From a virus, in UHGV virus genome UHGV-1356053: a stretch of DNA of 14,087 bases. The stretch is one strand, 5' to 3'. This document shows positions 215 to 14,087 of the stretch, piece by piece (the first letter of the stretch is position 1; each line of letters starts with the position of its first letter). Made by a program: the position numbers and the translations under genes. The notes under the pieces are model-generated. The model saw only the letters and a program-made list of their open reading frames with translations. It did not search any database and was not told where the DNA came from.

Positions 215-580
215 ATGGAAGAACAAGCAAACAAGATTCTCGTAGAACTACTGCAAAAAGCCAGCAATGGAATGGACGCGGCTGTTTCATTTAGCCAGGC
301 ACAGATTCCTGATGTCATCCATCAGCTTTTGATGTGGCACGCCGTATCATCAGCTGGAATTCAGGCTATCTGTGTATTGGTGATTATAGCGTGTGTTTAT
401 CTGATGATTTTTGCATGGAATAAAGGAGATGATGCAGATATTGTTCTTTTATCACTACTTGTTACATCAGGAATAGCGATTACTTCTATTGTTGTTTTCT
501 TCAATTATTTCGACTGGCTGAAAATTTGGCTTGCTCCAAAACTTTACCTTATCGAATATGCAGCATCATTGGTTAAGTAA
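215..580 (+). CDS. Hypothetical small membrane protein, 121 aa, two predicted C-terminal transmembrane helices
   Basis: ATG at 215 with AAGGTG 4 nt upstream; hydrophobic stretches GIQAICVLVIIACVYLMIFAW and IVLLSLLVTSGIAITSIVVFF; intrinsic terminator directly downstream. Confidence 0.7.
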   Translation: MEEQANKILVELLQKASNGMDAAVSFSQAQIPDVIHQLLMWHAVSSAGIQAICVLVIIACVYLMIFAWNKGDDADIVLLSLLVTSGIAITSIVVFFNYFDWLKIWLAPKLYLIEYAASLVK

Positions 581-584
581 TTTC

Positions 585-610
585 AGGACGCATAGTCGTC
601 CTTTATTTTT
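585..610 (+). terminator. Rho-independent terminator candidate
   Basis: AGGACG (585-590), 6-nt loop CATAGT, CGTCCT (597-602), then TTTATTTTT. Confidence 0.6.
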
Positions 611-639
611 AGCATAAACAACAGAATAAACACTGCACT

Positions 640-667
640 GTGTATTCATTCCAACGAGTGAATACAC
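640..667 (+). repeat. Perfect 9-bp inverted repeat (hairpin) in the cIII leader
   Basis: GTGTATTCA (640-648), 10-nt spacer, TGAATACAC (659-667). Confidence 0.6.
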
Positions 668-729
668 GGAGCAATGTCGCTCGTAACTAAACAGGAGCCG
701 ACTTGTTCTGATTATTGGAAATCTTCTTT

Positions 730-757
730 GCCCTCCAGTGTGAGGGCGATTTTTTAT
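730..757 (+). terminator. Rho-independent terminator candidate upstream of cIII
   Basis: GCCCTC (730-735), loop CAGTGT, GAGGGC (742-747), then GATTTTTTAT. Confidence 0.55.
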
Positions 758-819
758 GCATACCAATAACGCTTCACTCGAGGCGTTTTCGTTATGCAAT
801 CAAACAGAAGGAGTTACCC

Positions 820-954
820 ATGATGCACTTTCAGTTAGCGGGTAGCGGCGTCATGTCCGCTTTCTACCCGCACGAATCTGAATTATCACGCCGAGTTAAA
901 CAATTAATCAGAGCAGCAAAGAAACAACTGGAGGCGTTATGCGCAATGAAATAG
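820..954 (+). CDS. cIII: CIII-like protein (FtsH inhibitor family), 44 aa
   Basis: ATG 820 with AGAAGGAG 6 nt upstream; MMHFQLAGSGVMSAFYPHESELSRRVKQLIRAAKKQLEALCAMK resembles the conserved amphipathic core of lambda CIII (..AG..V....ES.L.R....L...) as recalled; sits upstream of kil as in lambda/P22. Confidence 0.6.
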   Translation: MMHFQLAGSGVMSAFYPHESELSRRVKQLIRAAKKQLEALCAMK

Positions 955-1091
955 CCATCAATCACCAGATGCTTCGTGCTGCACAGAACAAAGCAGTAAT
1001 AGCCAGATTTATTGGTGATTCAAAAATGTGGCTTGAAGCAAATAAAGCGATGAAATCAGCTATCAACCTTCCGTTGTATCGCAGGAAATGA
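939..1091 (+). CDS. kil: Kil-like small protein (host cell-division inhibitor family), 50 aa
   Basis: Below the ORF-track size cut-off. ATG 939 overlaps the cIII 3' end in another frame. MRNEIAINHQMLRAAQNKAVIARFIGDSKMWLEANKAMKSAINLPLYRRK shares the IA.FIGD.KM..EA motif with lambda Kil as recalled. Confidence 0.55.
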   Translation: MRNEIAINHQMLRAAQNKAVIARFIGDSKMWLEANKAMKSAINLPLYRRK

Positions 1092-1166
1092 GTTTTACAG
1101 ATAACTGGTCAGACGAAGAATTCATTCGTCAGATGAAAGATTTAATCGGTAACGAAGGAGATATTC

Positions 1167-1337
1167 ATGTCACTTGCAACCACAGTGAAGGAGAGCAAGT
1201 TACAGAGACGCATGTACACGCAGCAGGCGTTAATGTATCGCCAGAAGGGAGATCGTGAAGGTGTTCGCGTATTTTTAAATGCGGCAAAGACTGAAGTATT
1301 AAATCAGCGTTATTTCCTTGGGCCATGTCCATTCTGA
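1167..1337 (+). CDS. Hypothetical small basic protein, 56 aa, in the position of P22 arf
   Basis: ATG 1167 preceded by AAGGAG with 6-nt spacing; ends 8 nt before the annealing-protein start. An overlapping alternative frame (1088-1258) is also open. Confidence 0.4.
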   Translation: MSLATTVKESKLQRRMYTQQALMYRQKGDREGVRVFLNAAKTEVLNQRYFLGPCPF

Positions 1338-1345
1338 GGTGAATT

Positions 1346-2053
1346 ATGGATTTGAATAAATTCGATGAGCCATTCAGCCCTGAAGATATCGAATGGCGAA
1401 TACAGCAAAGCGGTAAAACACGCGATGGAAAGGTGTGGGCTATGGTGCTGGCTTATGTCACGAACAGGGCAATCATGAAACGCCTGGACGATGTTTGCGG
1501 CAAAGCAGGATGGCGCAATGAATACCGCGATATTCCCAACAACGGCGGCGTTGAATGCGGCATATCAATCAGGATTGATTCCGAATGGGTAACCAAATGG
1601 GATGCTGCTGAAAACACGCAGGTAGAAGCCGTCAAAGGTGGTCGTTCAGGTGCAATGAAGCGTGCTGCCGTTCAGTGGGGAATCGGTCGGTATCTGTATA
1701 ACCTTGAGGAAGGTTTCGCACAAACATCTCTCGATAAAAAGCATGGGTGGCACAGGGCAAAACTGAAGGATGGAACAGGATTTTACTGGCTCCCTCCATC
1801 GCTGCCGGGATGGGCAATCCCAGCATCAGATAACAAACCATCACCAGAAAATACCAACCAGAAATCTCCATCGGTTGACTGCGAACAAATCCTGAAAGAC
1901 TTCAGCGATTATGCGTCAACAGAAACTGACAAGAAAAAACTCATCGAGCGTTATCAGCGTGACTGGCAATTAATGGCTGGCAACGAGGAAGCGCAGGCTA
2001 AATGCGTTCAGGTAATGAACATCAGAGTTAACGAACTAAAACAGGCGGCATAA
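1346..2053 (+). CDS. Single-strand annealing protein, Rad52/Sak-type recombinase (235 aa)
   Basis: Pattern pEDIewR...GkvwamvlaYVtnRaimkRLddvcGkaGW...AMKRAAVQWGIGRYLY fits the Rad52 N-terminal annealing fold; no Walker A motif; sits in the erf/bet position directly upstream of ssb. Confidence 0.85.
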   Translation: MDLNKFDEPFSPEDIEWRIQQSGKTRDGKVWAMVLAYVTNRAIMKRLDDVCGKAGWRNEYRDIPNNGGVECGISIRIDSEWVTKWDAAENTQVEAVKGGRSGAMKRAAVQWGIGRYLYNLEEGFAQTSLDKKHGWHRAKLKDGTGFYWLPPSLPGWAIPASDNKPSPENTNQKSPSVDCEQILKDFSDYASTETDKKKLIERYQRDWQLMAGNEEAQAKCVQVMNIRVNELKQAA

Positions 2054-2560
2054 ATGGCAAGCAGAGGCGTAAATAAGGTGATTATCCTTGGTCGGGTAGG
2101 ACAAGACCCGGAAGTTCGATACTCACCATCAGGAACAGCGTTCGCTAACCTGACAATAGCCACGTCAGAACAATGGCGAGATAAAAATACTGGCGAGCAA
2201 AAGGAATTGACTGAATGGCATCGTGTTGCTGTATCCGGGAAACTGGCTGAGGTCGTGGGGCAGTATGTAAAAAAAGGTGATCAGATTTATTTCGAGGGAA
2301 TGCTGAGAACCAGAAAGTGGAAAGACCAGTCAGGGCAAGACCGTTACACAACCGAGGTTCATGTCGGAATTAATGGCGTGATGCAAATGCTTGGCGGCAT
2401 TGGCGACAGCAAACAACAAGCAGCCAGCAGGCAATCACAGAAGCCACAGCAGCAATCATCACCAGCACAACACAACGAACCTCCGATGGATTTTGACGAC
2501 GATATACCCTTTGCACCAGTAACTCTCCCCTTCCCTCGTCACGCTATTCACGCAATTTAA
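2054..2560 (+). CDS. ssb: Single-stranded DNA-binding protein (168 aa)
   Basis: [23 protein letters not shown]...TEWHRV...[12 protein letters not shown]... with Gln/Pro-rich linker and canonical acidic tail MDFDDDIPF; start abuts the preceding stop (TAA-ATG). Confidence 0.95.
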
Positions 2561-2573
2561 TCAGGAGAAAAAC

Positions 2574-2870
2574 ATGCCAGCGCCTCTGTATGGTGCGGAC
2601 GACGCACGCCGCTGTTCCGGCAATTCCGTATCGGAGGTGCTGGATAAATTCAGAAAAAACTACGACCTGATAATGTCGCTACCGCAGGAAACGAAAAAGG
2701 AAAAGGAATTTCGCCATTGTATATGGCTTGCAGAGAAAGAAGAACGCGATCGAATTTACCAGACATCAATCCGACCATTCCGCAAAGCCACATATACCCA
2801 CTTCCCTGAATATATCGACCCGCGCCTGCGTAATTACCGCTCACGCTATGGCGCTATCAGTAATGACTGA
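2574..2870 (+). CDS. Hypothetical protein, 98 aa; positionally equivalent to P22 abc (anti-RecBCD) genes, function unverified
   Basis: ATG 2574 with AGGAG 6 nt upstream; basic, Arg/Lys-rich; directly follows the annealing protein and ssb. Confidence 0.75.
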
Positions 2871-2880
2871 GGAATTTACC

Positions 2881-3045
2881 ATGAGAGGACTTGCATACAA
2901 TCCCGGCATTCTTCCGGCAGAAATGATTATTCGCCAACGCGTAAAGCCAATGCCATCGAGAGAGGAATTGCTTAAGAGAAATAGTTTCGGTTCTGTTAAT
3001 GACAACAAATATCTGAATGCAATGTGGCGGAGTGGGAAGAAATGA
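2881..3045 (+). CDS. Hypothetical small protein, 54 aa
   Basis: ATG 2881 with GAGGAA upstream; its stop overlaps the next start (ATGA at 3042-3045), suggesting translational coupling. Confidence 0.45.
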
Positions 3046-3548
3046 AACAAATGTCACTAATTGAGATGGATGGTTTTCTGAAAGGTAAATTCTTCCCACG
3101 AGATTTAAAGGTTAACGAAACAAACGCTGAATATCTTGTCCGTAAGTTCGGTGAACTTGAATCAAAACTGGAAACGGCGTTGCGTGAGTGTCGTTCTGCT
3201 GGAATCACGATTGATAACCTTGAGGCCAAGTGCGCTGCGCTGGCAGCAGAGAATGCGGGGATGAAGAAGTTCTGCAAAGACGATGCATTCGATGCCGATT
3301 ACGAAGCAGAGCTAGGTATGGAGCGTGGTGGATTCAGTGATGCGCTTAACGAAATCAAAACCCCAGCCACCGATGCTTTTCTGGCTGAAGTACGGGCGCA
3401 GGGGGTAGAGATGTACGCAGATAACCTCGACAACGGAGCAGACGACGCAGAACGAGGTGGTTTTGATTATGCCGTTAAGTTTCTACGCAGTGAAGCGTCT
3501 AGTGTACGTTTGTTCGCCGACCAGCTTCGCAAAGGAGGCAACCAGTGA
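3042..3548 (+). CDS. Ea22-like coiled-coil protein (168 aa)
   Basis: ATG 3042 with GGGAAGA upstream (the track's GTG 3024 would overlap the previous gene); acidic helical sequence; stop overlaps the next start (GTGA at 3545-3548). Confidence 0.75.
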
Positions 3549-3997
3549 GCAAGATTGACTATCAGGCACTGCGTGCTAAGGCAGAAAAAGCAACGTGTGG
3601 CGAGTGGTCGCTCGAATATGGAGAGGGCCGATTTGATGGTGATGATGCGCTAATTCATCGCGAGGCTGCTGGATATATTCCCATTTGCAGAATTGAAGGA
3701 GCGCATCCTGAAAGCGGTTTCGATGAAGATTTCCAAATAGAACAGCAGGCCAATGCTGAATTCATCGCCGCAGCCAATCCAGCTACCGTGCTGGCGCTGC
3801 TGGATGAGCTGGAAGCCAAAGACAAGCGGATTGCTGACATGGAGGCGCGGGAGGTTGTACTGCCGCGTGCGCACGATGTTCACCCATTAGGGCCGCAGTC
3901 GGCGAAAATTTTTTGTGAGTTTCACCGGAGTATCGTGAACAGATGCGCCGATGAGATTCGCAAGGTTGGCGTCAAAGTCAGCATCAAGGGGAATTAG
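3545..3997 (+). CDS. Ead/Ea22-like protein (150 aa)
   Basis: GTG start with AAGGAGG 9 nt upstream; contains ...NAEFIAAANPATVLALLDELEA... which I recognise as the conserved Ead/Ea22 motif of lambdoid ea-region proteins. Confidence 0.8.
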   Translation: MSKIDYQALRAKAEKATCGEWSLEYGEGRFDGDDALIHREAAGYIPICRIEGAHPESGFDEDFQIEQQANAEFIAAANPATVLALLDELEAKDKRIADMEAREVVLPRAHDVHPLGPQSAKIFCEFHRSIVNRCADEIRKVGVKVSIKGN

Positions 3998-4001
3998 GGA
4001 T

Positions 4002-4598
4002 ATGGCTGAACTAACCAAAGAATGGCTGAAGCAAACTATCGCTGAATACGAAGCCAATCGTGATGAATTACCGTTTGGACTGGATACCAACAGTGCCATT
4101 GAGCTTCAGGCGTTCAAGTTGGCGCTGGCATCGCTGGAAGCAGATCCAGTTGCTTATATTTTCAAACATCCGGCCGGGAAATTATTCTGGGCTTTAACGG
4201 ATGAAAGCAATAAAGAGCAATCGGACGTTATTCCTGTTTATGCCGCCCCTCCAGTGCCAGTAGTACCTGAAGAAAAACCAATGCCTAACCCTCTTAAAAT
4301 GTACGCGGTTGATGCTGTTGCCGCTATTGAAGAGGTGAGAGGCTGGAACGCCTGTCGTGCCGCTATGCTTCAGAGTCAAGGTAATTGCATTAAGGATGGT
4401 TGGATAAGCTGTAGTGATCGAATGCCGGAAGACACCAAAATGTTACTGGCATTTAGTCAAGGTGAAATCGTGGCCGCATATTGGAACTGGGTTGTAAATC
4501 CAATTGATTACAAAAAATATAGAGCTTTCACGTATTTATCAGGAAATATCTTGGATGACGTAACTCACTGGATGCCGCTACCAGAGCCTCCACTTTGA
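4002..4598 (+). CDS. DUF551-type C-terminal domain protein (198 aa)
   Basis: ATG 4002 (MAELTKEWLKQ) with GGGA upstream; C-terminus GWISCSDRMPED...AAYWNW...HWMPLPEPPL matches the DUF551 signature as recalled. Confidence 0.8.
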   Translation: MAELTKEWLKQTIAEYEANRDELPFGLDTNSAIELQAFKLALASLEADPVAYIFKHPAGKLFWALTDESNKEQSDVIPVYAAPPVPVVPEEKPMPNPLKMYAVDAVAAIEEVRGWNACRAAMLQSQGNCIKDGWISCSDRMPEDTKMLLAFSQGEIVAAYWNWVVNPIDYKKYRAFTYLSGNILDDVTHWMPLPEPPL

Positions 4599-4694
4599 AA
4601 GCGAAGCTTATACATATCTTTTACATCAGCAATCTATTGTTAATCTCCAATCAATGTTACGTTGTCATCTCACTCATGCTTTGGAGGTAGTGAT

Positions 4695-4874
4695 ATGTCT
4701 TGTCCAAAATGCGGTTGTGGAAATATTGCAAAAGAAAAAACAATGCGTGGATGGTCTGGTGATTATGTGTGCTGCGATTGCGGATACAACGACTCTAAAG
4801 ACGCATTTGGAGAGCGTGGTAAAAACGAGTTTGTCAAAATTAATAAAGATCGCGAAGGCAACGGAAAAAGCTAA
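4695..4874 (+). CDS. Small zinc-ribbon protein (59 aa, two CxxC-type pairs)
   Basis: ATG 4695 with GGAGG 7 nt upstream; MSCPKCGCGNIAKEKTMRGWSGDYVCCDCGYND... Confidence 0.6.
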   Translation: MSCPKCGCGNIAKEKTMRGWSGDYVCCDCGYNDSKDAFGERGKNEFVKINKDREGNGKS

Positions 4875-4939
4875 TTTATTATTCATATATGAAAACAATG
4901 TAACCAATATTCGAATTGAAGAACTGAAAGAACACCAAG

Positions 4940-4960
4940 CCGCCTGATGGCGGTTTTTTT
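4940..4960 (+). terminator. Rho-independent terminator
   Basis: CCGCC (4940-4944), loop TGAT, GGCGG (4949-4953), then seven T (4954-4960). Confidence 0.7.
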
Positions 4961-4974
4961 ATTGGAGACAAGAA

Positions 4975-5319
4975 ATGTCAGATTTGGCTATGAAGGTTTT
5001 GAAATGGCAATCAACTGGCGATGTTGGCATCAGTAGCGCAACTCTTGCCTCAATCGCATGTGGGCTGAAAAAGAATATCTATGGTCATCACTTCGGCGCT
5101 CCCCATGACGCAGCAGACTTTCGGCGATGCGTTGCACTTGTTGAGCAGATTCCAGAAATCAGAGATTCATTCGACAAGGTTGCAAAGCGCGTTCCGGCAT
5201 TCAAAGGAATCCTCAACGAATGGGATTCACTCGTTGCTCTGTTGAAGTCTGAAATGAAGATACACGGAAACAAAGCACCAGAGACTTACAGAAGAATCAG
5301 CGAGCTACGCAAGGACTAA
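4975..5319 (+). CDS. Hypothetical protein, 114 aa
   Basis: ATG 4975 with GGAGA 6 nt upstream, immediately after the 4940-4960 terminator; no recognisable motif. Confidence 0.75.
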   Translation: MSDLAMKVLKWQSTGDVGISSATLASIACGLKKNIYGHHFGAPHDAADFRRCVALVEQIPEIRDSFDKVAKRVPAFKGILNEWDSLVALLKSEMKIHGNKAPETYRRISELRKD

Positions 5320-5406
5320 CCCGCCTCACACTCGATGAGGCCTGTACATTTCTCAAGATATCCAGACCTACCGCAATCATGTCAATCCAATAAATGGAGA
5401 TTCCAG

Positions 5407-5754
5407 GTGGAAGAAGAAATCTTCACTCGTGAAGAAGCTGCGTCGTATCTGAAGGTAGACAAAGGCACTATCACACAGTGGATACGAAGTGGACGACTTC
5501 AGGCCGCAAAGATAAATCCAGATAAACCTAAAAGTCCATATCGCATTTGCAAGTCAGACTGCATTGCGGCGCTTAAGTCTGTGAGACACAATAGCGCGGT
5601 GAATGCGGTTGATGTGCAGGAGGTTAAAGCATGTCAATCAAACTACGCGGTGGCACGTGGCACTGCGATTTCGTCGCGCCAGATGGATCAAGAGTTAGAC
5701 GCTCTCTTGAAACATCGGACAAAAGGCAAGCGCAAGAACTTCACGATCGTCTGA
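5407..5754 (+). CDS. xis: Excisionase (helix-turn-helix Xis family), 115 aa
   Basis: GTG 5407 with GGAGA 6 nt upstream is the best-supported start (the track's ATG 5335 has no RBS); FTREEAASYLKVDKGTITQWIRSGRLQAAKI is an excisionase-type HTH; 3' end overlaps the int start by 124 nt in another frame. Confidence 0.65.
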   Translation: MEEEIFTREEAASYLKVDKGTITQWIRSGRLQAAKINPDKPKSPYRICKSDCIAALKSVRHNSAVNAVDVQEVKACQSNYAVARGTAISSRQMDQELDALLKHRTKGKRKNFTIV

Positions 5755-6791
5755 AAGCAGAAGCGTGGAGAGTAAAAAATCTCGGGGAATCACCGAAAAA
5801 GCTATTCAAGGAAGCCTGCATACGGTGGCTGCGTGAGAAATCGGATAAGAAGTCCATTGATGATGACAAGAGCATTATATCGTTCTGGATGTTGCACTTC
5901 AGAGAAGCCATTCTCTCTGACATAACAACAGAAAAAATAATGGAGGCGGTAGACGGGATGGAAAACCGCCGCCATCGCCTGAACTGGGAGATGAGCCGGG
6001 ACAGGTGTTTGCGACTTGGCAATCCGGTGCCGGAGTATAAACCAAAGCTGGCAAGCAAAGGAACGAAGACGAGGCATCTGGCAATACTTCGCGCCATTCT
6101 CAATATGGCTGTTGAATGGGGATGGCTTGACAGGGCACCCAAAATATCAACACCACGCGTTAAGAATGGACGCATCAGATGGCTTACAGAGGAGGAATCG
6201 AAGCGCCTGTTTGCAGAAATTGCTCCTCACTTCTTCCCTGTGGTCATGTTTGCAATCACGACAGGCCTTCGCCGTTCCAACGTTACAGACCTTGAGTGGT
6301 CACAGGTCGATCTGGATAAGAAAATGGCATGGATGCACCCTGATGAAACAAAAGCTGGCAATGCGATCGGAGTTCCTCTTAACGAAACCGCATGCCAGAT
6401 ATTAAGAAAACAGCAGGGGCTCCATAAGAGATGGGTATTTGTCCACACCAAACCTGCCTACCGAAGCGACGGAACAAAAACAGCAGCGGTAAGGAAGATG
6501 AGAACCGACAGCAACAAGGCATGGAAGGGAGCGTTAAAGCGGGCAGGCATTAGCAACTTCCGCTTCCATGACCTGAGGCATACCTGGGCAAGCTGGCTGG
6601 TTCAGTCCGGTGTCTCTCTTCTTGCACTTAAAGAGATGGGAGGATGGGAAACTCTCGAAATGGTTCAAAGATACGCCCACCTTTCAGCCGGGCATCTCAC
6701 CGAGCACGCGAGCAAAATCGATGCGATTATAAGTCGCAATGGCACAAATACGGCACAAGAGGAGAACGTAGTTTACTTAAATGTGAGGTAA
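5631..6791 (+). CDS. int: Tyrosine integrase, P22 Int type (386 aa)
   Basis: AGGAGG upstream of ATG 5631; resembles P22 Int throughout as recalled (KRQAQELHDRLKAEAWRV, TGLRRSN, FRFHDLRHTWASWLVQ, GGWE..EMVQRYAHL with the catalytic R..HxxR..Y pattern); ends 15 bp from the att core. Confidence 0.97.
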   Translation: MSIKLRGGTWHCDFVAPDGSRVRRSLETSDKRQAQELHDRLKAEAWRVKNLGESPKKLFKEACIRWLREKSDKKSIDDDKSIISFWMLHFREAILSDITTEKIMEAVDGMENRRHRLNWEMSRDRCLRLGNPVPEYKPKLASKGTKTRHLAILRAILNMAVEWGWLDRAPKISTPRVKNGRIRWLTEEESKRLFAEIAPHFFPVVMFAITTGLRRSNVTDLEWSQVDLDKKMAWMHPDETKAGNAIGVPLNETACQILRKQQGLHKRWVFVHTKPAYRSDGTKTAAVRKMRTDSNKAWKGALKRAGISNFRFHDLRHTWASWLVQSGVSLLALKEMGGWETLEMVQRYAHLSAGHLTEHASKIDAIISRNGTNTAQEENVVYLNVR

Positions 6792-6805
6792 CTTATTGAT
6801 TTAAA

Positions 6806-6851
6806 TGGTGCCGATAATAGGAGTCGAACCTACGACCTTCGCATTACGAAT
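6806..6851 (-). other. attP core: 46-bp copy of the 3' part of tRNA-Thr(CGU) (thrW-type target); not a complete tRNA gene
   Basis: Minus strand reads ATTCGTAATGCGAAGGTCGTAGGTTCGACTCCTATTATCGGCACCA: anticodon-loop 3' half, T-arm GGTTCGACTCC, acceptor 3' strand and CCA. The sequence 5' of it (GGTGCTACAG) does not continue the tRNA, so only the att-core part is present. Confidence 0.85.
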
Positions 6852-6910
6852 CTGTAGCACCAATCATAACTATCTGTTTTAGCAAGCATTAACCGCATTC
6901 ACCAAGCAAT

Positions 6911-7046
6911 AGTTGATGGCACAAACAGAAAGTTGATGCATGATGTTGTCATGTGTATGTCACAAATACGGCACAACGATCTTCAAACATGTAGCCACTC
7001 AGCATAGAAGAGCACAAAGCCTTGCAATCCAGTGCAAAGCTTTGTG
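6911..7046. repeat. Short repeats in the attP arm; candidate arm-type Int/IHF sites and a hairpin
   Basis: AGTTGATG twice (6911-6918, 6931-6938); sCACAA(A/C) four times (6918-6927, 6959-6969, 6970-6979, 7010-7020); inverted repeat CACAAAGC (7013-7020) / GCTTTGTG (7039-7046) followed by T-rich sequence. Confidence 0.4.
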
Positions 7047-7082
7047 TGTCTCAGTTTTGTTTCATCGGTAATTATGTGTTCG

Positions 7083-7382
7083 CTACGATGCAAGAATCCA
7101 TACCAATAAGCATCCGATAATTGGGAAAGAAAAATCCAACAGACTTCCCACATCCCACACGCGTGGATCAAAACCTCCCCACCACGGCATGTTGATGCGT
7201 TTCCCTTTCCCAAACTTTTCTATCCAGCGATATTCTGCCTGGGTGTGTTCACGCGCAATGAAGAACGTACAACCGGCTATCGCACCGTAAGCCCAGTTTC
7301 CGGTAGAAAGGCCAACCAGTACCTGAGCCGCAAAAGCGCAAAGCGAGTGAAGAAATGGAGTGACATCAATGCTCTTAATCAT
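7083..7382 (-). CDS. Hypothetical small membrane protein (99 aa), translationally coupled to the tailspike
   Basis: Its ATG (7382-7380) overlaps the tailspike stop (ATGA); hydrophobic segments [30 protein letters not shown] and [16 protein letters not shown]; occupies the tailspike-to-attP slot where P22 and Sf6 carry gtrABC or oac. Confidence 0.65.
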
Positions 7383-9436
7383 GAAACTTCCCCATTGGTT
7401 GAAAATATGGCTCCTCCAACGCCAAGTGTATTTCGTGTTGCGCTCAACCTCAGAGGGCTGGAGTCAGAATTAGAATATCCTGTAGCAGAAATAAAAGATC
7501 CTCCACTAATAGTCAACTGCGGAACATCGGCTATATCTGAATAAGTTCTGTCAGCAACAGTATTATTTATAGCCACATGTGATCCAAAAAAACTTCTTAT
7601 TGTTTGGTTTTTAACTTTACTTCCTTCAATGGTTATCCTACTACCACAGTCGGCAATAAATCCTGAATCTGCATCCAGCGTTGCATTCATAAAAGAAGCT
7701 TCAGATCTCTCTACATCAATCCATCTAATATCTTTTGTGGGATTTGCACCAAATACATGACAAATATTAGAGTTAAACCTTACTCCATCTTGGAGGTGCA
7801 TTAATTTTTTTATATCTGTACCCCATAGCCTTGGAAAATTAACAGATGCTCCTGCATGGCAATCAAATCCCAGCTCAGCCCCTGAGATATCTACAGCCTT
7901 TCCTGAAATAACAGCGCCAGTGTCTGCATTAACGGCTGTTCCACAATTGCGCATATCATTACCAGCAACATCAACACAACCCGCACCATCAATACGCACA
8001 CCAAGCGCACATCCATAAAAACCTTTTTCAATATTTGGTTCAAGGACTTTACCACTTGTTTCTGCATCACTTTCTTCAACGTCATGTCGTCTTGCATCAA
8101 CATATGCTGTATGAATGCAGGTTAATCCACGATATGAGCAGTGTATAGTTTTATGGTCGCGTATATTAACATTTGAACCATCTCTTACATTCCACCCCAT
8201 ATAACAATAGCTTGCACTTGACCCCTGAAAATCTGCTTTAACATTATAAATACAATTAACTGACGCAACCGTACTCTCTGTGCACCGTTCAAACTTGCTT
8301 ACAGGCATTGATGCCTTGACATTATTTACCAGTTGCAGGGAAGAGTATCTGCTATAAGAAAAATCACATACGTAATACCCTTCTGGCATATATGCAGCAA
8401 CACTTTCCTCATCAGGAGCACATCCGGTATGATATGCACTAATTTTTGCACCAAAGCTACCATGAATTCCAACGTAGAACTTTCGAGCACCTGAATACGG
8501 ATAGAAATTAAGTTCAGCTTTTTGAGTTACAATAAATGCACAAACATCGCTATCATCTCTATTTTCTTCAATCTGAATAGCAAATACAGGACTTTTTGCT
8601 GCATCGCAAATGTAAAATAAATATTTGTATTCGTAATACGTCCTAACAGTTTTAGTAAACAAACTGGTATCAGAGAAAACCACTGAGTCTTCTGATATTA
8701 TTTTAATCCATGATAAGTCACATCCTGCTGAAATTTCTATTTGCTCATTGAGCACAAAACCGGAAAGAATTTTAATTATGCAAAAATCAATGCCATTTTT
8801 CCATAGTGGACGCAGTGCAACAGCTGAGTTTAGAGCATCACTAATAGATTTAAAATTACCATATTCCCCAACTGTTATTGTGAATGCATACCTGGAATTA
8901 AATACTGCGGCACTCTCTCCAGAGTTAATAGCTGCAGATATCATGTCATAATTTGATATAAAATCATTTGGCGTGATTATTTCTGCGTTTTTATTGTGCT
9001 GTGTTCTAAGTTTTGAATTTACATGAACACTTTTAACTGCAATACGGGAGTCGTCAACAAGTATTTCATTACCCTCTGTTGCTAACTCTTGTCTTAACTG
9101 ATCCGGGTCATACTTCAGCACATTCGGAAAATAGAACTGCTGCACACCGTACGCATCATAAACAGCCATAGAATGGCCCTGTACAGTAACGAATTTGGCA
9201 ATCTGTCCGTTATATACAGGGTAACCAGCAGCGTTAATGATGATTGGTTGCGAAACAGGAACGTGAGAACCGTCTTCGTTTTCCACATAAACCTGAATCT
9301 GGTTTTCAGGATTTACCGGGTCAGTGTCAATTTTCCCGATATAAATTTTGCCATTGGCTACGGCTTTAAAAGAACGCGCCATAGTGAAGAGTTGCGAAGG
9401 CATACTCACTACAACATTGGCTGTAATGTCTGTCAT
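7379..9436 (-). CDS. Tailspike protein: P22/Sf6-type N-terminal head-binding domain plus divergent receptor-binding (putative depolymerase) body, 685 aa
   Basis: N-terminal ~115 aa ([46 protein letters not shown]...NVLKYDPDQ) match the podovirus tailspike head-binding domain as recalled; the rest is Gly/Asn/Ser/Val/Cys-rich repetitive sequence compatible with a beta-helix; GGAG 8 nt upstream of the ATG. Confidence 0.95.
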
Positions 9437-9472
9437 TTAATTTGCTCCAGATACAAGGAATCGCCGCAGCAT

Positions 9473-9519
9473 TGCCACAGTGATGCATTATTAATCAAAC
9501 AAAGAGACCGCTGTGGTCT
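9473..9519. promoter_or_regulatory. Candidate operator elements in the divergent tailspike/mnt control region
   Basis: TGCCACAG (9473-9480) and its inverted near-copy CTGTGGTC (9511-9518; reverse complement GACCACAG); local palindrome AGACC-N5-GGTCT (9505-9519); lies in the 146-bp gap between the tailspike and mnt starts. Confidence 0.35.
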
Positions 9520-9582
9520 TATTGAGGATGCAACCAGCAGATAATAAGATGCCGATCCACTCACAAAAGCGAGGCATCAAGA

Positions 9583-9834
9583 ATGGGAAGAGATGACCCG
9601 CAATTTAATCTGCGGCTACCTTACGAATTAAAGGAAAAACTAAAACAGCGAGCCAAATCCAATGGCCGCTCTCTTAATTCAGAATTAGTTCAGATAGTGA
9701 CTGATGCTGTATCAAAGCCATCCAAAATTTCAGGCTATCGAGACGATGCGGAACGCATCGCTGATGAGCAGTCAGAGCTTGTTAAGAAGATGGTGTTTGA
9801 TACGCTGAAGGATTTGTACAAAAAACCCACCTGA
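9583..9834 (+). CDS. mnt: Mnt-type ribbon-helix-helix repressor (83 aa)
   Basis: MGRDDPQFNLRLPYELKEKLKQRAKSNGRSLNSELVQIVTDAVSKPSKISGYRDDAERIADEQSELVKKMVFDTLKDLYKKPT matches P22 Mnt along its whole length as recalled, including the C-terminal ADEQSELVKKMVFDTLKDLYKK. Confidence 0.93.
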   Translation: MGRDDPQFNLRLPYELKEKLKQRAKSNGRSLNSELVQIVTDAVSKPSKISGYRDDAERIADEQSELVKKMVFDTLKDLYKKPT

Positions 9835-9850
9835 AGGTGGGTTAATTTTT
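9824..9850 (+). terminator. Rho-independent terminator of mnt
   Basis: AACCCACC (9824-9831), loop TGAA, GGTGGGTT (9836-9843), then AATTTTT; the mnt stop codon lies in the loop. Confidence 0.75.
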
Positions 9851-9868
9851 GCATTTACCTGGGCCATA

Positions 9869-9897
9869 TTGACTACTTATAAAATGAGATCAATATT
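9869..9897 (+). promoter_or_regulatory. Candidate sigma70 promoter for the small downstream gene
   Basis: TTGACT (9869-9874), 16-17 nt spacer, CAATAT/AATATT (9891-9897); about 35 nt upstream of the RBS at 9925. Confidence 0.35.
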
Positions 9898-9933
9898 TAA
9901 TCGCCCAATAACGGGTGTATGTTGAGGTATATC

Positions 9934-10113
9934 ATGGCGAAAAAACCAGGTGAAAACACAGGAAAAAACGGCGGAATATACCAAGAAGTTGGCCCACGCG
10001 GCGGTAAGAAAGACAATTTTGCAACCGTCAAGGACAACGAAAGGCTTCCACCAACAACAAAGCCAGGTCATGGCTGGGTATTGGATAAGCGAACTCCAGA
10101 CAGCAAAAAGTAA
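9934..10113 (+). CDS. Small Gly/Lys-rich hypothetical protein (59 aa), tentatively YjzC-like
   Basis: ATG 9934 with GAGGT 5 nt upstream; MAKKPGENTGKNGGIYQEVGPRGGKKDNFATVKDNERLPPTTKPGHGWVL...; flanked by its own promoter candidate and a terminator. Confidence 0.6.
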   Translation: MAKKPGENTGKNGGIYQEVGPRGGKKDNFATVKDNERLPPTTKPGHGWVLDKRTPDSKK

Positions 10114-10118
10114 TAATC

Positions 10119-10141
10119 AAGCCGGGTCACTCCGGCTTTTT
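10119..10141. terminator. Bidirectional intrinsic terminator between convergent genes
   Basis: AAGCCGG (10119-10125), loop GTCACT, CCGGCTT (10132-10138), then TTTT; the stop codon of the minus-strand HExxH gene (10127-10129) lies within the hairpin. Confidence 0.7.
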
Positions 10142-10492
10142 GATATGTCGCTCGCAGAACTCAACAAGCCTGCTCATTAAGTAGCAGTAAGTCTCGTTGG
10201 CTCTTCCTGGTTCAACATCAACACCTACCCTTGAGCAGATATCGAATGCCATGTGAGCGCACTCATGGGCAATAGTAGATAGTTTGCCATTGAACACGCC
10301 TATCACATGCAAAACACCATTCTCGCTACTCATTGTATGAGACGCTCCGTTGGCGTCCGAGTCATGCACGTCAACGCCAAGTTTTTGATGCAGGCGTTGC
10401 CATTCTGGAAAGTCTCTACAAAACACAATTGTACCGCTCTCAAAGAGCGGAACGAGCATCTTTGGTACGTTTCCAATGTTAACTTTTTTCAT
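10127..10492 (-). CDS. Small soluble HExxH-motif protein (putative minimal Zn-metallopeptidase-like), 121 aa
   Basis: ATG 10492-10490 with AGGA upstream; IAHECAHMAFD (HExxH) followed by Glu residues 16-22 positions downstream (VDVE, NET), a gluzincin-like arrangement; no hydrophobic segments. Confidence 0.7.
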   Translation of the reverse strand: MKKVNIGNVPKMLVPLFESGTIVFCRDFPEWQRLHQKLGVDVHDSDANGASHTMSSENGVLHVIGVFNGKLSTIAHECAHMAFDICSRVGVDVEPGRANETYCYLMSRLVEFCERHIKKPE

Positions 10493-10526
10493 GGTATCCT
10501 GCGCAAAACTAAGGAGAGTTAATTAT

Positions 10527-11012
10527 ATGAAAAAATCACTGTTAATTATCCCGCTTCTGCTGGCTGGGTGCGCAAAAGTAAGCGACTATCAGGCAAGTTG
10601 CGAGCAACGCTATCCAAAGCTTAGCGATATGGCTAATTGCCTTGATGCCAGCTTGAAGAACGACTCTCGCATGGCATCAGCACCAACACCTAAGCTGTAT
10701 GTCCTTGCTGCGAAGATGCTCGGGCAAGGTGTCGATGAAGGCAAGATAAGTGACACACAGGCAAGACTTGAACTTCAGAATCTTTATGTTCAATTACAAA
10801 GCCAAGAACAAGCACAACAAATAGCACAAAGCCAAGCATTCCAGCAGGCTTTATTGAATTATCAGGCTGTAAACACAATGCAAGCGATCGAGCAAAAAGC
10901 GCGCCAGCCTGTTATAACTCAACCTTACCCAACACGCGTTGACACATATACAAACTGCAATTCAGGATTTGGAAACACGGTAACATGCAACAGTAGCAGT
11001 AATATCAGATAG
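10527..11012 (+). CDS. Lipoprotein with Gln-rich coiled-coil region (161 aa)
   Basis: ATG 10527 with AAGGAG 10 nt upstream; signal peptide MKKSLLIIPLLLAGC with lipobox LAG-C, Ala at +2; four further Cys in two pairs; QSQEQAQQIAQSQAFQQALLNYQAV coiled-coil-like. Confidence 0.8.
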   Translation: MKKSLLIIPLLLAGCAKVSDYQASCEQRYPKLSDMANCLDASLKNDSRMASAPTPKLYVLAAKMLGQGVDEGKISDTQARLELQNLYVQLQSQEQAQQIAQSQAFQQALLNYQAVNTMQAIEQKARQPVITQPYPTRVDTYTNCNSGFGNTVTCNSSSNIR

Positions 11013-11025
11013 TTATATCTTATTT

Positions 11026-12873
11026 TTATTGCTGTTCTGCTGTAATTTGGCTTGAAAGTATAGGGCGTATCGCATTTGCAGCATTATTTAGCGCTCTTTC
11101 ATAGGCTGGTGTTCCTGCTTTGGTGTTTGCCAAACGTAAGAGAGCATTCCTTGCTGCTTTTGACTCATACAAGCGCATCATTGCACCGAAACCAGCCTCA
11201 AGCCCCATTGATACGCCAAGAGTCGCAGTTGCGCCAATCGTCCTTATCCTGTTGGCTTGCGATTGCCCCGTCTGAGTTACTACATTTGCGGTGTCTGACC
11301 TTGCTGTTTGCTGTAGAACTTCATGAAGAGAATCAAGCTCTTTCATGTGCTTTCCAGAAAAAATAGTGTTGTAAATTTCACCGCCTGACTGAGATTTCAG
11401 CTTATTAACTTCAGTGATGAACTTGGCTGGAGAGTCACCGGCCTTTTCCGCTATTTTGCTGACATAAGCTGCACGCATAGCATCTTTCCCTTTATTATCC
11501 AATGCGCTCCAGATTCGTTTCACGTCAGATGGTTTTCTGCTTAATACAACGGTATTTATAAGTTCAGGACTGGCTTCACTGCTTGCCTTGTTGAGCTTGT
11601 TAGCAATGTTTTTATTAAGCACCTTATTATAAACGTTTGCATAATCGGAATTTGCTTTAAGGTATTTTGCTGCGTCTGATGCACCGAGGTTTTTTGCAAC
11701 TGCGTTACGAAGATCTTTTGACATTGCATTCTCTACCATATTGGTAGCTGCTTTTGCCTGGTTTGGGAAGACCATAGCATCTCCCTGAACATTAGATCTA
11801 AATGCTGTTCTGTGCTGACGCAAGAGATCAAACGTAACATCCAAATCAGTTGCAGGGTTTGCTAATTCTTCACGTAGGTTACGCAAGGATGTAAGCAGGC
11901 TTTGATTGGCAGACGTCCCAAGCCGTTCCTGTCTTGCGATCGCTGTATTCAGAGCATTCATGGTATTTGTGGTATCAACTGCGGCATTACCCATTTTATT
12001 GGTGACGTCATTGATAACAGCGCCAGCGGCATCCTTCCGCCCCCTTAACGTGGTGGTAAGAGATTTCACCACATCATCAGGGTTGTACTCACCAAAACGG
12101 TCAAAATAATTACTTACCAGCTTACTACGCGTTGCATATTGCTCCGCTCGCTTTGAGCCTGTCCCGAGCAAAGCCCCCTCGGCATCCTGAGTTAGGCCGC
12201 GAGTGAAAGCATTTTTCGGCGGGATAACATCAGATGTCATTGGTGTCACGCCCATCGATTCTGATGTGGCAATTTTCTTCGCCACTTCTGGCGCAATATC
12301 ACCTTTTATAGCCGTTATTCCACGCCCTATTCCCTTTGCTGCTGCGGAAAGAACCCCCTGAGCGGCAAGGTTAACTCCGGCATTTTTAGCTGCATTTTGT
12401 GCGAAATCGCCTTTCTGATTTGCGGCCTCTGCCAGTGATCCAATAGCCATGCTTCCTGCCGTTCCAACTCCTGGAACTAAATACCCGCCAATTGTTTCTC
12501 CAGCTTGCGCATAAGGGTCTGTTGGTCGATCGACTGGACGATAGACATCGTCCAAAACCTTGGGGCCACCAAGCCCCTGGCTGATTGCATTAATCAGACT
12601 TGCGCCGCCCTGCAATACGTCAAATGGTATGTTTACCAGACCACGACCAGCCTGTTCCGCAATTTGCCCTGCACTTTGACCACCAGTGAGCCAATCGCCA
12701 GCTTGTTGCATCAATGATGGTTCTTCCCGTGTTGGTGCATTATTGGCCTGATTAACTGTTTGTTGCTGAACAGCCTGACCAGCAAAATACTCATCAATGG
12801 CGGTGCCAATATCTTCGGTGCTCGTACCATCAGGAAAGGTAAATATCTTACCGTTTGCAGTTACTTTCATCAT
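11026..12873 (-). CDS. Ejection (DNA-transfer) protein, P22 gp16-like by size and position (615 aa)
   Basis: Ala/Gly/Gln-rich soluble protein of the size expected for gp16, immediately upstream (in late-operon direction) of the sieA/immI-position island and tailspike. The second ATG (12870) has the better-spaced GGTGG RBS. Confidence 0.8.
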
Positions 12874-13010
12874 TCCACCGTAAATTGAATGCCTGATTTT
12901 GAGGTATATGATCCAACCTGATTCCGTGGTTCTCCTGAAGGTGTCGAATCTTGTGCTGGCGCTGCGTCAGTATTCATTGACATATACCGCTTAACGGCAC
13001 TCCCCAATGA

Positions 13011-14087
13011 TTCACCTTTTTTAACATCCAACCCCAATATCTGACCGCCATTACGCTTCAGCTTATCAGGCAGAACAATGATATTGAGCGTTCAGGCGCT
13101 AACAATGTTGGGCTGACTGCTTTGCAAGGCCTTTCAGGTATTGCTGGGGTGTTTCAGCGGGAAAAGCAGGCTCAGCGGCAGAAAGAATTTCAGCAGGCAT
13201 ACGCTAATGCTTATGCGTCTGGTGATCGCGGTGCTTTGCGTCAGTTGGCTACTCAATATCCAGACCAGATTGAATCCGTTCGTAAAGGCATGGGGTTCAT
13301 TGATGAAGAGCAGCGTAATTCTATCGGCACCTTAGCGGCTGGCGCACGCCTTGCGTCATCGTCTCCAGAAGCAATGCAATCATGGCTGCAAAACAACGCC
13401 AAGGAACTGACTCGCGTCGGTGTTGACCCTAACAGCGTTGCTCAGATGTATCAGCAGAATCCTTCAGGATTTGGTGAGTTTGTTGATCACCTTGGAATGG
13501 CTGCTCTTGGTCCGATTGATTACTTCAATGTTCAGGACAAGATGGCTGGTCGTGAGATTGACCGAGGCAGGCTGGCAGAGACAATCCGCAGCAATCAGGC
13601 TGGTGAAGCACTTCAGGCGAGAGGGCAAAACCTTTCCTATCAGTCAGCAATGACTGGGCACAATATCGCAGCACAACGCTTGGCTCTGGATCAGCAAGAG
13701 TTCGGGTTTAAGATGCAGCAAGCGCAGGAAAAGGCTCAGCAGTTGATTAGCGAAGCACCTAAGCTGTCAGTAAACATGGAAAAAGGCATCGAGACGGCTG
13801 TAAACAATGCCACAGCATCATCAAACTCAGCCAATTCCATGAGTGCGCTTGCTCAACAGTTCAGAGCAGAAAAACCAACGACCGGCTTGTTCGGTAACGC
13901 ACAGAACATGTTCGCAAAACTTACCGGAAGCGATACGACATTGCGTGATTTGCGCATTCGCCAAAATGCCCTTGTTAACAGTCAGGTTCTTAAATTCCTA
14001 CCTCCCGGCCCAGCAACGGATAAAGACGTTGAGATCGTTCGACAGGGTGCGCCAACTGACATGGATAACCCTGAGACGGTCGCAAGA
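13011..14087 (+). CDS. Large Ala/Gln-rich protein, partial (runs out of window); 5' end unresolved
   Basis: One plus-strand frame is open for 359 codons from 13011 to the window end with no stop (checked codon by codon); no complete minus-strand ORF of 60 aa or more in the track. Candidate starts TTG 13122, GTG 13149, ATG 13290; none has a convincing RBS. Confidence 0.6.

Follow-up and report, generated by a model that had tools for sequence, protein, structure and literature searches.

A divergent open frame without a start codon in a P22-like phage genome is very probably the inverted interior of its own gene 20

Introduction

The ejection proteins P22 gp20 and Sf6 gp12 are carried in the virion, are ejected on adsorption and extend the tail channel across the outer membrane and the periplasm, and ejection proteins are needed for infectivity (PMC8954989). 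Both are T7 gp15-like tunnel components that belong to PF16928 and phrog_917, the families also matched in the DNA studied here, a stretch of 14,087 nt from UHGV virus genome UHGV-1356053 that we call the window. Two relatives carry gene 20 unbroken. In the E. coli prophage of strain Ecol_881 (locus L003), an uninterrupted gene 20 of 468 codons at 15271-16677 encodes the 'phage DNA ejection protein' WP_063612134.1 and shares its strand with gene 16, and in the ENA contig k141_19014 (locus L005) an unbroken gene at 4598-6004 for a 468-aa Inj_translocase protein is likewise on the strand of gene 16. Gene 20 lies directly upstream of gene 16 in both loci, and the stop of the one overlaps the start of the other in an ATGA. 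The window shares with L003 and L005 the order of gene 16, the ORFs at the sieA position and mnt, but it carries codons 31-375 of gene 20, presumably to 407, on the opposite strand, with 99.0% identity over 1035 nt.

A second class of described structures also resembles this locus. The chimeras of multiple displacement amplification (MDA) are predominantly inverted joins with an intervening jump, primed by 2-21 nt of homology (PMC1855051).

Results

Genome Context of the Ejection Genes

The window covers part of the excised genome of a temperate phage that is P22-like (Lederbergvirus-type). The left-arm genes, on the plus strand up to 6791, encode a Rad52-type recombinase, an SSB, the anti-RecBCD protein Abc2, Ead/Ea22, a DUF551 protein, an Xis-like HTH protein and Int, with the Xis-like HTH_17 ORF (5335-5754, plus strand) and the integrase gene (5631-6791, plus strand) overlapping by 124 nt. 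The attP region occupies ~290 nt after the end of Int at 6791, between Int and a 99-aa minus-strand ORF of phrog_1443 (7083-7382), which adjoins it and whose start overlaps the stop of the minus-strand tailspike gene (Head_binding, 7379-9436). Int thus adjoins the tailspike arm, which is the excised attP configuration (5335-7382). The 99-aa ORF is conserved in several relatives, since 99-aa genes were observed in L005, L011 and L014. The identical 386-aa integrase was found only in integrated E. coli prophages, many in number, next to proA (Aldedh/AA_kinase genes).

The mnt gene lies at 9583-9834, and between it and gene 16 there are two conserved ORFs with no Pfam match, one of 121 aa on the minus strand (10127-10492, phrog_1365) and one of 161-178 aa on the plus strand (10476-11012, phrog_6067). 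They occupy what we take to be the P22 sieA/hkc position, the second presumably also in the matching orientation, and they may be superinfection-exclusion or moron genes. The gene 16 homolog (11026-12873, minus strand) is intact and encodes a 615-aa ejection/DNA transfer protein that matches phrog_770 'DNA transfer protein' (E=2.3e-279); the ATGA at 12870-12873 combines its start codon with the stop of gene 20. The exact protein carries PF26808 Phage_P22_gp16 in precomputed annotation (13 contigs), and our local Pfam-A copy returned no match, which reflects a difference in library version and not biology.

The genome is a mosaic, and no single public genome covers ≥80% of the window. The left arm (585-7060) shares ~97.6% identity with the lambdoid phages mEpX2 and HK75, and the virion arm is P22-like; the right arm (7004-13056) matches P22-like prophages of E. 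coli and contigs from metagenomes at 98-99.6%. Mosaicism extends into gene 20, with an Sf6-like part at 13046-13612 (95.9%) and an N7-like part at 13529-14087 (98.9%). The first part is 95.9% identical in DNA to Sf6 10345-10911 (gene 12), and the N-terminal 270 residues are ~83% identical. The C-terminal half belongs to a different mosaic type, N7-like (98.9%), and overall protein identity to Sf6 gp12 is only 60%. In addition, three relatives with an identical gene 16 (L004, L006 and L009) have a gene 20 whose N-terminal half is divergent, with 77% protein identity overall.

The Plus-Strand Frame Next to Gene 16

An ORF scan revealed a plus-strand frame of 359 codons without a stop, from 13011 to the window end at 14087, with a TGA just before it (13008-13010). 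It diverges from the gene 16 homolog on the minus strand and lacks a usable start; its earliest in-frame ATG is at 13290, with only TTG 13122 and GTG 13149 before that. The chance of a 359-codon open frame is (61/64)^359, or ~3e-8, and a length so far beyond chance indicates real coding sequence. Past 13094 no minus-strand frame stays open, the three frames having 12, 21 and 21 stops within 12874-14087, and the GC skew changes sign at ~13050 (-0.16 to +0.14), as expected if the coding strand changes there.

Two short plus-strand ORFs, at 12908-12997 and 12922-13045 with their stops (28 and 40 codons), lie antisense to the gene 20 3′ end, and a GAGG precedes the first (12908-12994). We found no evidence that either of them is a gene; both lie in sequence whose 99-100% conservation among relatives is explained by the gp20 C-terminus encoded on the opposite strand. 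Promoter-like matches around the junction were at background (2 versus 1.1 ± 1.1 in shuffles), as were the results of the terminator scan there. An earlier sequence-only reading of this DNA had reported the TGA, the ATG at 13290, both short ORFs and the GAGG, and our rescan reproduced all of these coordinates. It also confirmed the closed minus strand, past 13094 and with stops in all three frames, and the lack of a clear start, only TTG 13122 and GTG 13149 standing before the ATG.

Identity of the Frame

Judged from sequence comparison, the 359-codon frame is very probably (roughly 97%) the interior of the phage's own gene 20, which encodes the P22 gp20 / Sf6 gp12 ejection protein, and not an independent gene. 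In the Pfam scan the plus-strand frame matched PF16928 Inj_translocase over profile positions 22-217 with 232.6 bits (cut-off 29.7; E=5.7e-69), and it matched phrog_917 ('released from the phage upon host infection') from profile position 33 with E=2e-151. At the DNA level, positions 13053-14087 of the plus strand carry codons 31-375 of gene 20 in inverted orientation, without the start codon and the N-terminus, at 99.03% identity to L003 16587-15553, and match L005 4687-5722. Compared with residues 31-375 of the L005 gp20, the plus-strand piece has one substitution in 345 (Q66R).

The other piece of the gene that is present is its 3′ end, which occupies 12870-13056 on the minus strand, in its normal place and orientation, and comprises codons 408-468 and the stop, severed from the remainder of the gene. 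The DNA of this 187-nt tail is 99-100% identical to relatives, its collinearity reaching 15457 in L003 and 5818 in L005, and its translation (12873-13055) is identical to the last 61 residues of the L005 gp20. Protein alignment therefore places the two pieces at residues 31-375 (plus) and 408-468 (minus) of a 468-aa gp20. Codons 1-30 and 376-407 were found nowhere in the 14,087-nt window, and a search for a second copy of the flipped segment in the window, as a circular or fold-back structure would give, returned none. A complete gene 20 ORF, with start, N-terminus and contiguous C-terminus, is thus lacking in the window, and only the last 61 codons of gene 20 conform there to the gene order 7-20-16 on one strand. 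Phage megablast splits the region in the same manner, with 12503-12908 similar to epsilon34 genes 13/12 and 13046-13612 similar to Sf6 gene 12 on the other strand.

The odd features at the 5′ end of the frame arise because the inversion junction lies there. True gene 20 codons begin at 13053 with residue 31, so no start codon is expected at that point, and the 14 codons at 13011-13052 stay open by chance and read the 3′ end of gene 20 in antisense; their bases belong to the collinear minus-strand tail. These 14 codons make the frame appear longer than its true coding part.

The opposing view, that the plus-strand frame is a distinct gene (foreign, divergent and ejection- or tape-measure-like, frameshifted or oddly initiated), draws on the long open frame and its Ala/Gln-rich product, and we regard it as extremely improbable. 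The frame breaks exactly at the end of the minus-strand gene 20 tail and differs from a known gp20 in one of 345 residues, no start precedes TTG 13122, GTG 13149 or ATG 13290, promoter and terminator signals do not rise above background, and Pfam gives Inj_translocase alone. Three particular forms of it were rejected. A separate foreign insertion does not fit a segment that matches gene 20 at this position in collinear relatives with 99% identity, a frameshift or unusual initiation does not fit a frame that is intact and lacks only codons 1-30, and a tape-measure protein does not fit the sole Pfam match, Inj_translocase, in a phage that is a P22-like podovirus with a Head_binding tailspike.

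The sequence-only reading had anticipated part of this outcome. It held the product to be compatible with an ejection protein, which the Inj_translocase (232.6 bits) and phrog_917 matches bear out, and it expected gene 20 beside gene 16 without recognising that the plus-strand frame is gene 20 itself. Its tape-measure-like alternative finds no support, Inj_translocase being the only Pfam match, nor does its inserted foreign gene, given the 99% identity to gene 20 of the collinear relatives, or its frameshifted or unusually initiated gene, given a frame intact but for codons 1-30.

Distribution of the Junction

The normal arrangement is widespread. In all 15 fetched relatives with a match to both genes, gene 16 is preceded on its own strand by gene 20; the two are directly adjacent in the nine close relatives in which the match extends to the gene 20 3′ end, and the order 7-20-16 is also present in Sf6 and epsilon34. 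The P22-like layout from which the sequence-only reading had argued, with genes 20 and 16 on one strand, therefore holds in all 15 relatives and in these two phages. The exact gene 16 protein occurs on 13 public contigs, in all of which gene 20 is normal and none of which is DNA-identical to the window. The tailspike has exact matches on eight contigs, none with the window's gene 16.

The junction itself was met only in the window. No junction-spanning record was obtained among 39 phage matches, among 1228 E. coli records from 5426 complete genomes, where alignments stop at 13056 or begin at 13046-13053, or among nine plasmid-collection matches. Exact searches with a junction 41-mer and 23-mer gave no hit in IMG/VR, GTDB-representative genomes or JGI metagenomes, and the predicted second junction was equally absent from these three collections, while a control 23-mer across the canonical junction was present in at least 120 IMG/VR viral contigs. 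The chimeric 55-aa minus-strand ORF has no exact match on record.

One deposited record, OM022251.1 (Escherichia phage HZ41), also has gene 20 in two pieces, at 1-306 and 38604-38952, as its linear, unannotated sequence starts and ends inside the gene. Its arrangement is normal once circularised, so that the split is an arbitrary linearisation point of a circular assembly; it shows how readily gene 20 is split in deposited records.

Structure and Origin of the Junction

Base-by-base comparison placed the inversion junction at 13052-13056, where the two parental sequences have TACGC in common (all 5 bp when L005 is the reference, only the 4 bp ACGC with L003). Window 9079-13056 is collinear with L003 11479-15457 (99.07%), and window 13053-14087 is the reverse complement of L003 15553-16587; window 7007-13056 matches L005 11867-5818, and window 13052-14087 matches L005 4687-5722 on the opposite strand. 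The split pattern seen against L005 is repeated by five further contigs. The join is thus a jump of about 1131 bp to a nearby inverted site on the same molecule, with 5 bp (TACGC) in common. In a simulation with random breakpoints in the same sequence, P(≥5 bp) was 0.0054 and P(≥4 bp) was 0.018, and a microhomology rarely so long at random breakpoints indicates that the join was microhomology-mediated and not a random cut-and-flip.

Two origins lead the field, and both would involve a switch to the opposite strand ~1.13 kb away, primed by the TACGC/GCGTA microhomology. Inversion and assembly problem, two of the options listed in the sequence-only reading, accordingly both survive, while its foreign gene and its frameshift or odd initiation do not. 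Under a simple inversion, the flipped segment would correspond to L005 4687-5817 and lie wholly inside gene 20, its length being 1126-1136 bp according to the crossover point chosen within the microhomology; the second junction would then fall ~96-100 nt past the window end. The window stops 95 nt short of where such a segment would end, and it therefore fits a two-junction inversion and a one-junction chimera alike. The canonical (uninverted) junctions are CCGCCATTACGC followed by GATTGTCCAGG, and GGAAATACGC followed by TTCAGCTTATC. After an in-place inversion, gene 20 would run on in sense for another 95 nt, ...WLDAMANLERRNAQFNEFKAEWMSANGNPGQS, and the far junction would be CCTGGACAATC GCGTA TTTCCGATGTCATT (L005 type) or, in general form, CCTGGACAATC-GCGT(A/G)-TT(T/G)CCGATGTCATT, followed on the minus strand by codons 30-1 of gene 20 and gene 7. 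A one-junction chimera would instead run into GCGTAATGGCGGTCAGATATTGG, the gene 20 3′ end, and then into a second, plus-strand copy of gene 16.

We put at about even odds a technical chimera or misassembly, either an amplification or library chimera that entered the assembly or a wrongly oriented segment. The join shows two features of a template-switch or amplification chimera, a nearby inverted site and a short microhomology, and the predominant MDA chimeras are likewise inverted, with an intervening jump primed by 2-21 nt of homology (PMC1855051). The inverted junction is moreover unique across the searched collections, and a lethal lesion is unexpected in an excised, attP-form genome that is otherwise intact. 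However, a microhomology of 4-5 bp suits illegitimate recombination or template switching equally well, and for a technical origin, chimeric molecules or reads must have reached an appreciable coverage, or a manual or scaffolding step must have introduced the join. To our knowledge, De Bruijn assemblers do not by themselves make joins with a 5-bp overlap.

The other leading origin, a genuine in-place inversion of ~1.13 kb in gene 20 (codons 31-407) by illegitimate recombination or template switching at TACGC/GCGTA, is a serious possibility towards which we lean less. The junction is clean, its microhomology is rarer than random (P=0.005-0.018), and both flanks are 99% identical to the very same relatives, as for an event in situ. 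This simple model covers all the observations, with the missing 95 nt and the second junction predicted just past the window, and neither of the missing gene 20 pieces occurs elsewhere in the window. Against it, the arrangement is unique among thousands of relatives and the predicted second junction is absent from three contig collections, the window shows no further decay, and the genome could not spread as a phage, as ejection proteins are required for infectivity (PMC8954989). A phage with such an inversion would still excise and assemble particles but would not deliver its DNA. Dead phages persist as integrated prophages, yet the genome is in the attP form and not in the integrated one. 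On balance, an origin in vitro or in silico is somewhat more likely than an event in the phage genome.

A programmed, reversible intragenic inversion (inverton-like) that toggles gene 20 and hence infectivity was also weighed; the flipped segment is short and lies inside one gene, with nothing else in favour of this reading, which we judge highly improbable. Programmed invertible segments such as Hin/Gin/Cin-type switches and intragenic invertons have inverted repeats of ~10 bp or more at both ends and a dedicated invertase or recombinase encoded close by, but only the 4-5 bp were found here, and at the parental breakpoints in L005 and L003 there is no inverted repeat of >5 bp and no imperfect one that pairs both sites. 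The Pfam scan, which covered 22 sequences of the 14-kb window including every gene-like ORF of ~100 aa or more, revealed no serine invertase; the one integrase- or invertase-type enzyme that it detected is the tyrosine integrase at attP. The breakpoints carry no attP-like sequence (best ungapped matches 15/30 and 17/35) and being unlike attP give no sign of an Int-mediated secondary-site event. Both orientations would be expected among relatives, but the inverted one was seen in no other genome searched (inverted 0, canonical at least 120), and with the minus frames closed, the flip opens up no other product on the strand of gene 20. It would be similarly far-fetched to posit a genuine and recurrent microhomology flip in this essential ejection gene that gives infectious and non-infectious progeny as a form of phase variation.

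Discussion

The comparison with L005 bears on the age of the rearrangement. The flipped segment differs from L005 at 10 nucleotides, nine of which are synonymous third-position changes in the gp20 frame, and has no stop in 345 codons. By this pattern of substitution, the segment evolved as a working gene 20 and has not decayed since the flip. All other genes in the window are intact.

As written, the sequence encodes no functional gp20. Minus-strand translation from the native gene 20 start, which is outside the window, would meet stops in the flipped segment, and the plus-strand piece is without a start, a ribosome-binding site and the N-terminal 30 residues. A genome with gene 20 split in this way would be predicted to give non-infectious particles, since ejection proteins are required for infectivity, and the loss of translational coupling at the ATGA overlap may also lower the expression of gene 16.

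For annotation, there is no new divergent gene to be recorded here, and positions 13052-13056 call for a flag, either for a disrupted gene 20 or for a possible chimera. By its match to database entries at 99% identity, the protein is a member of a known and annotated family, and the anomaly is a rearrangement junction and not a new element. A real inversion would be one lethal lesion in a P22-like temperate phage that is intact elsewhere, and a further case of microhomology-mediated inversion, without teaching anything new about ejection proteins. An artefact would illustrate that inverted chimeric joins can enter consensus sequences and mimic 'divergent genes with no start'.

For the P22 gp20/Sf6 gp12 family, packaging in the virion and the trans-periplasmic tube are known from those phages. 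MDA chimeras are normally minority molecules that rarely appear in a consensus assembly; what they have in common with the window is an inverted join to a nearby site, with a jump here of ~1.1 kb and 5 nt of homology (Lasken and Stockwell 2007, PMC1855051).
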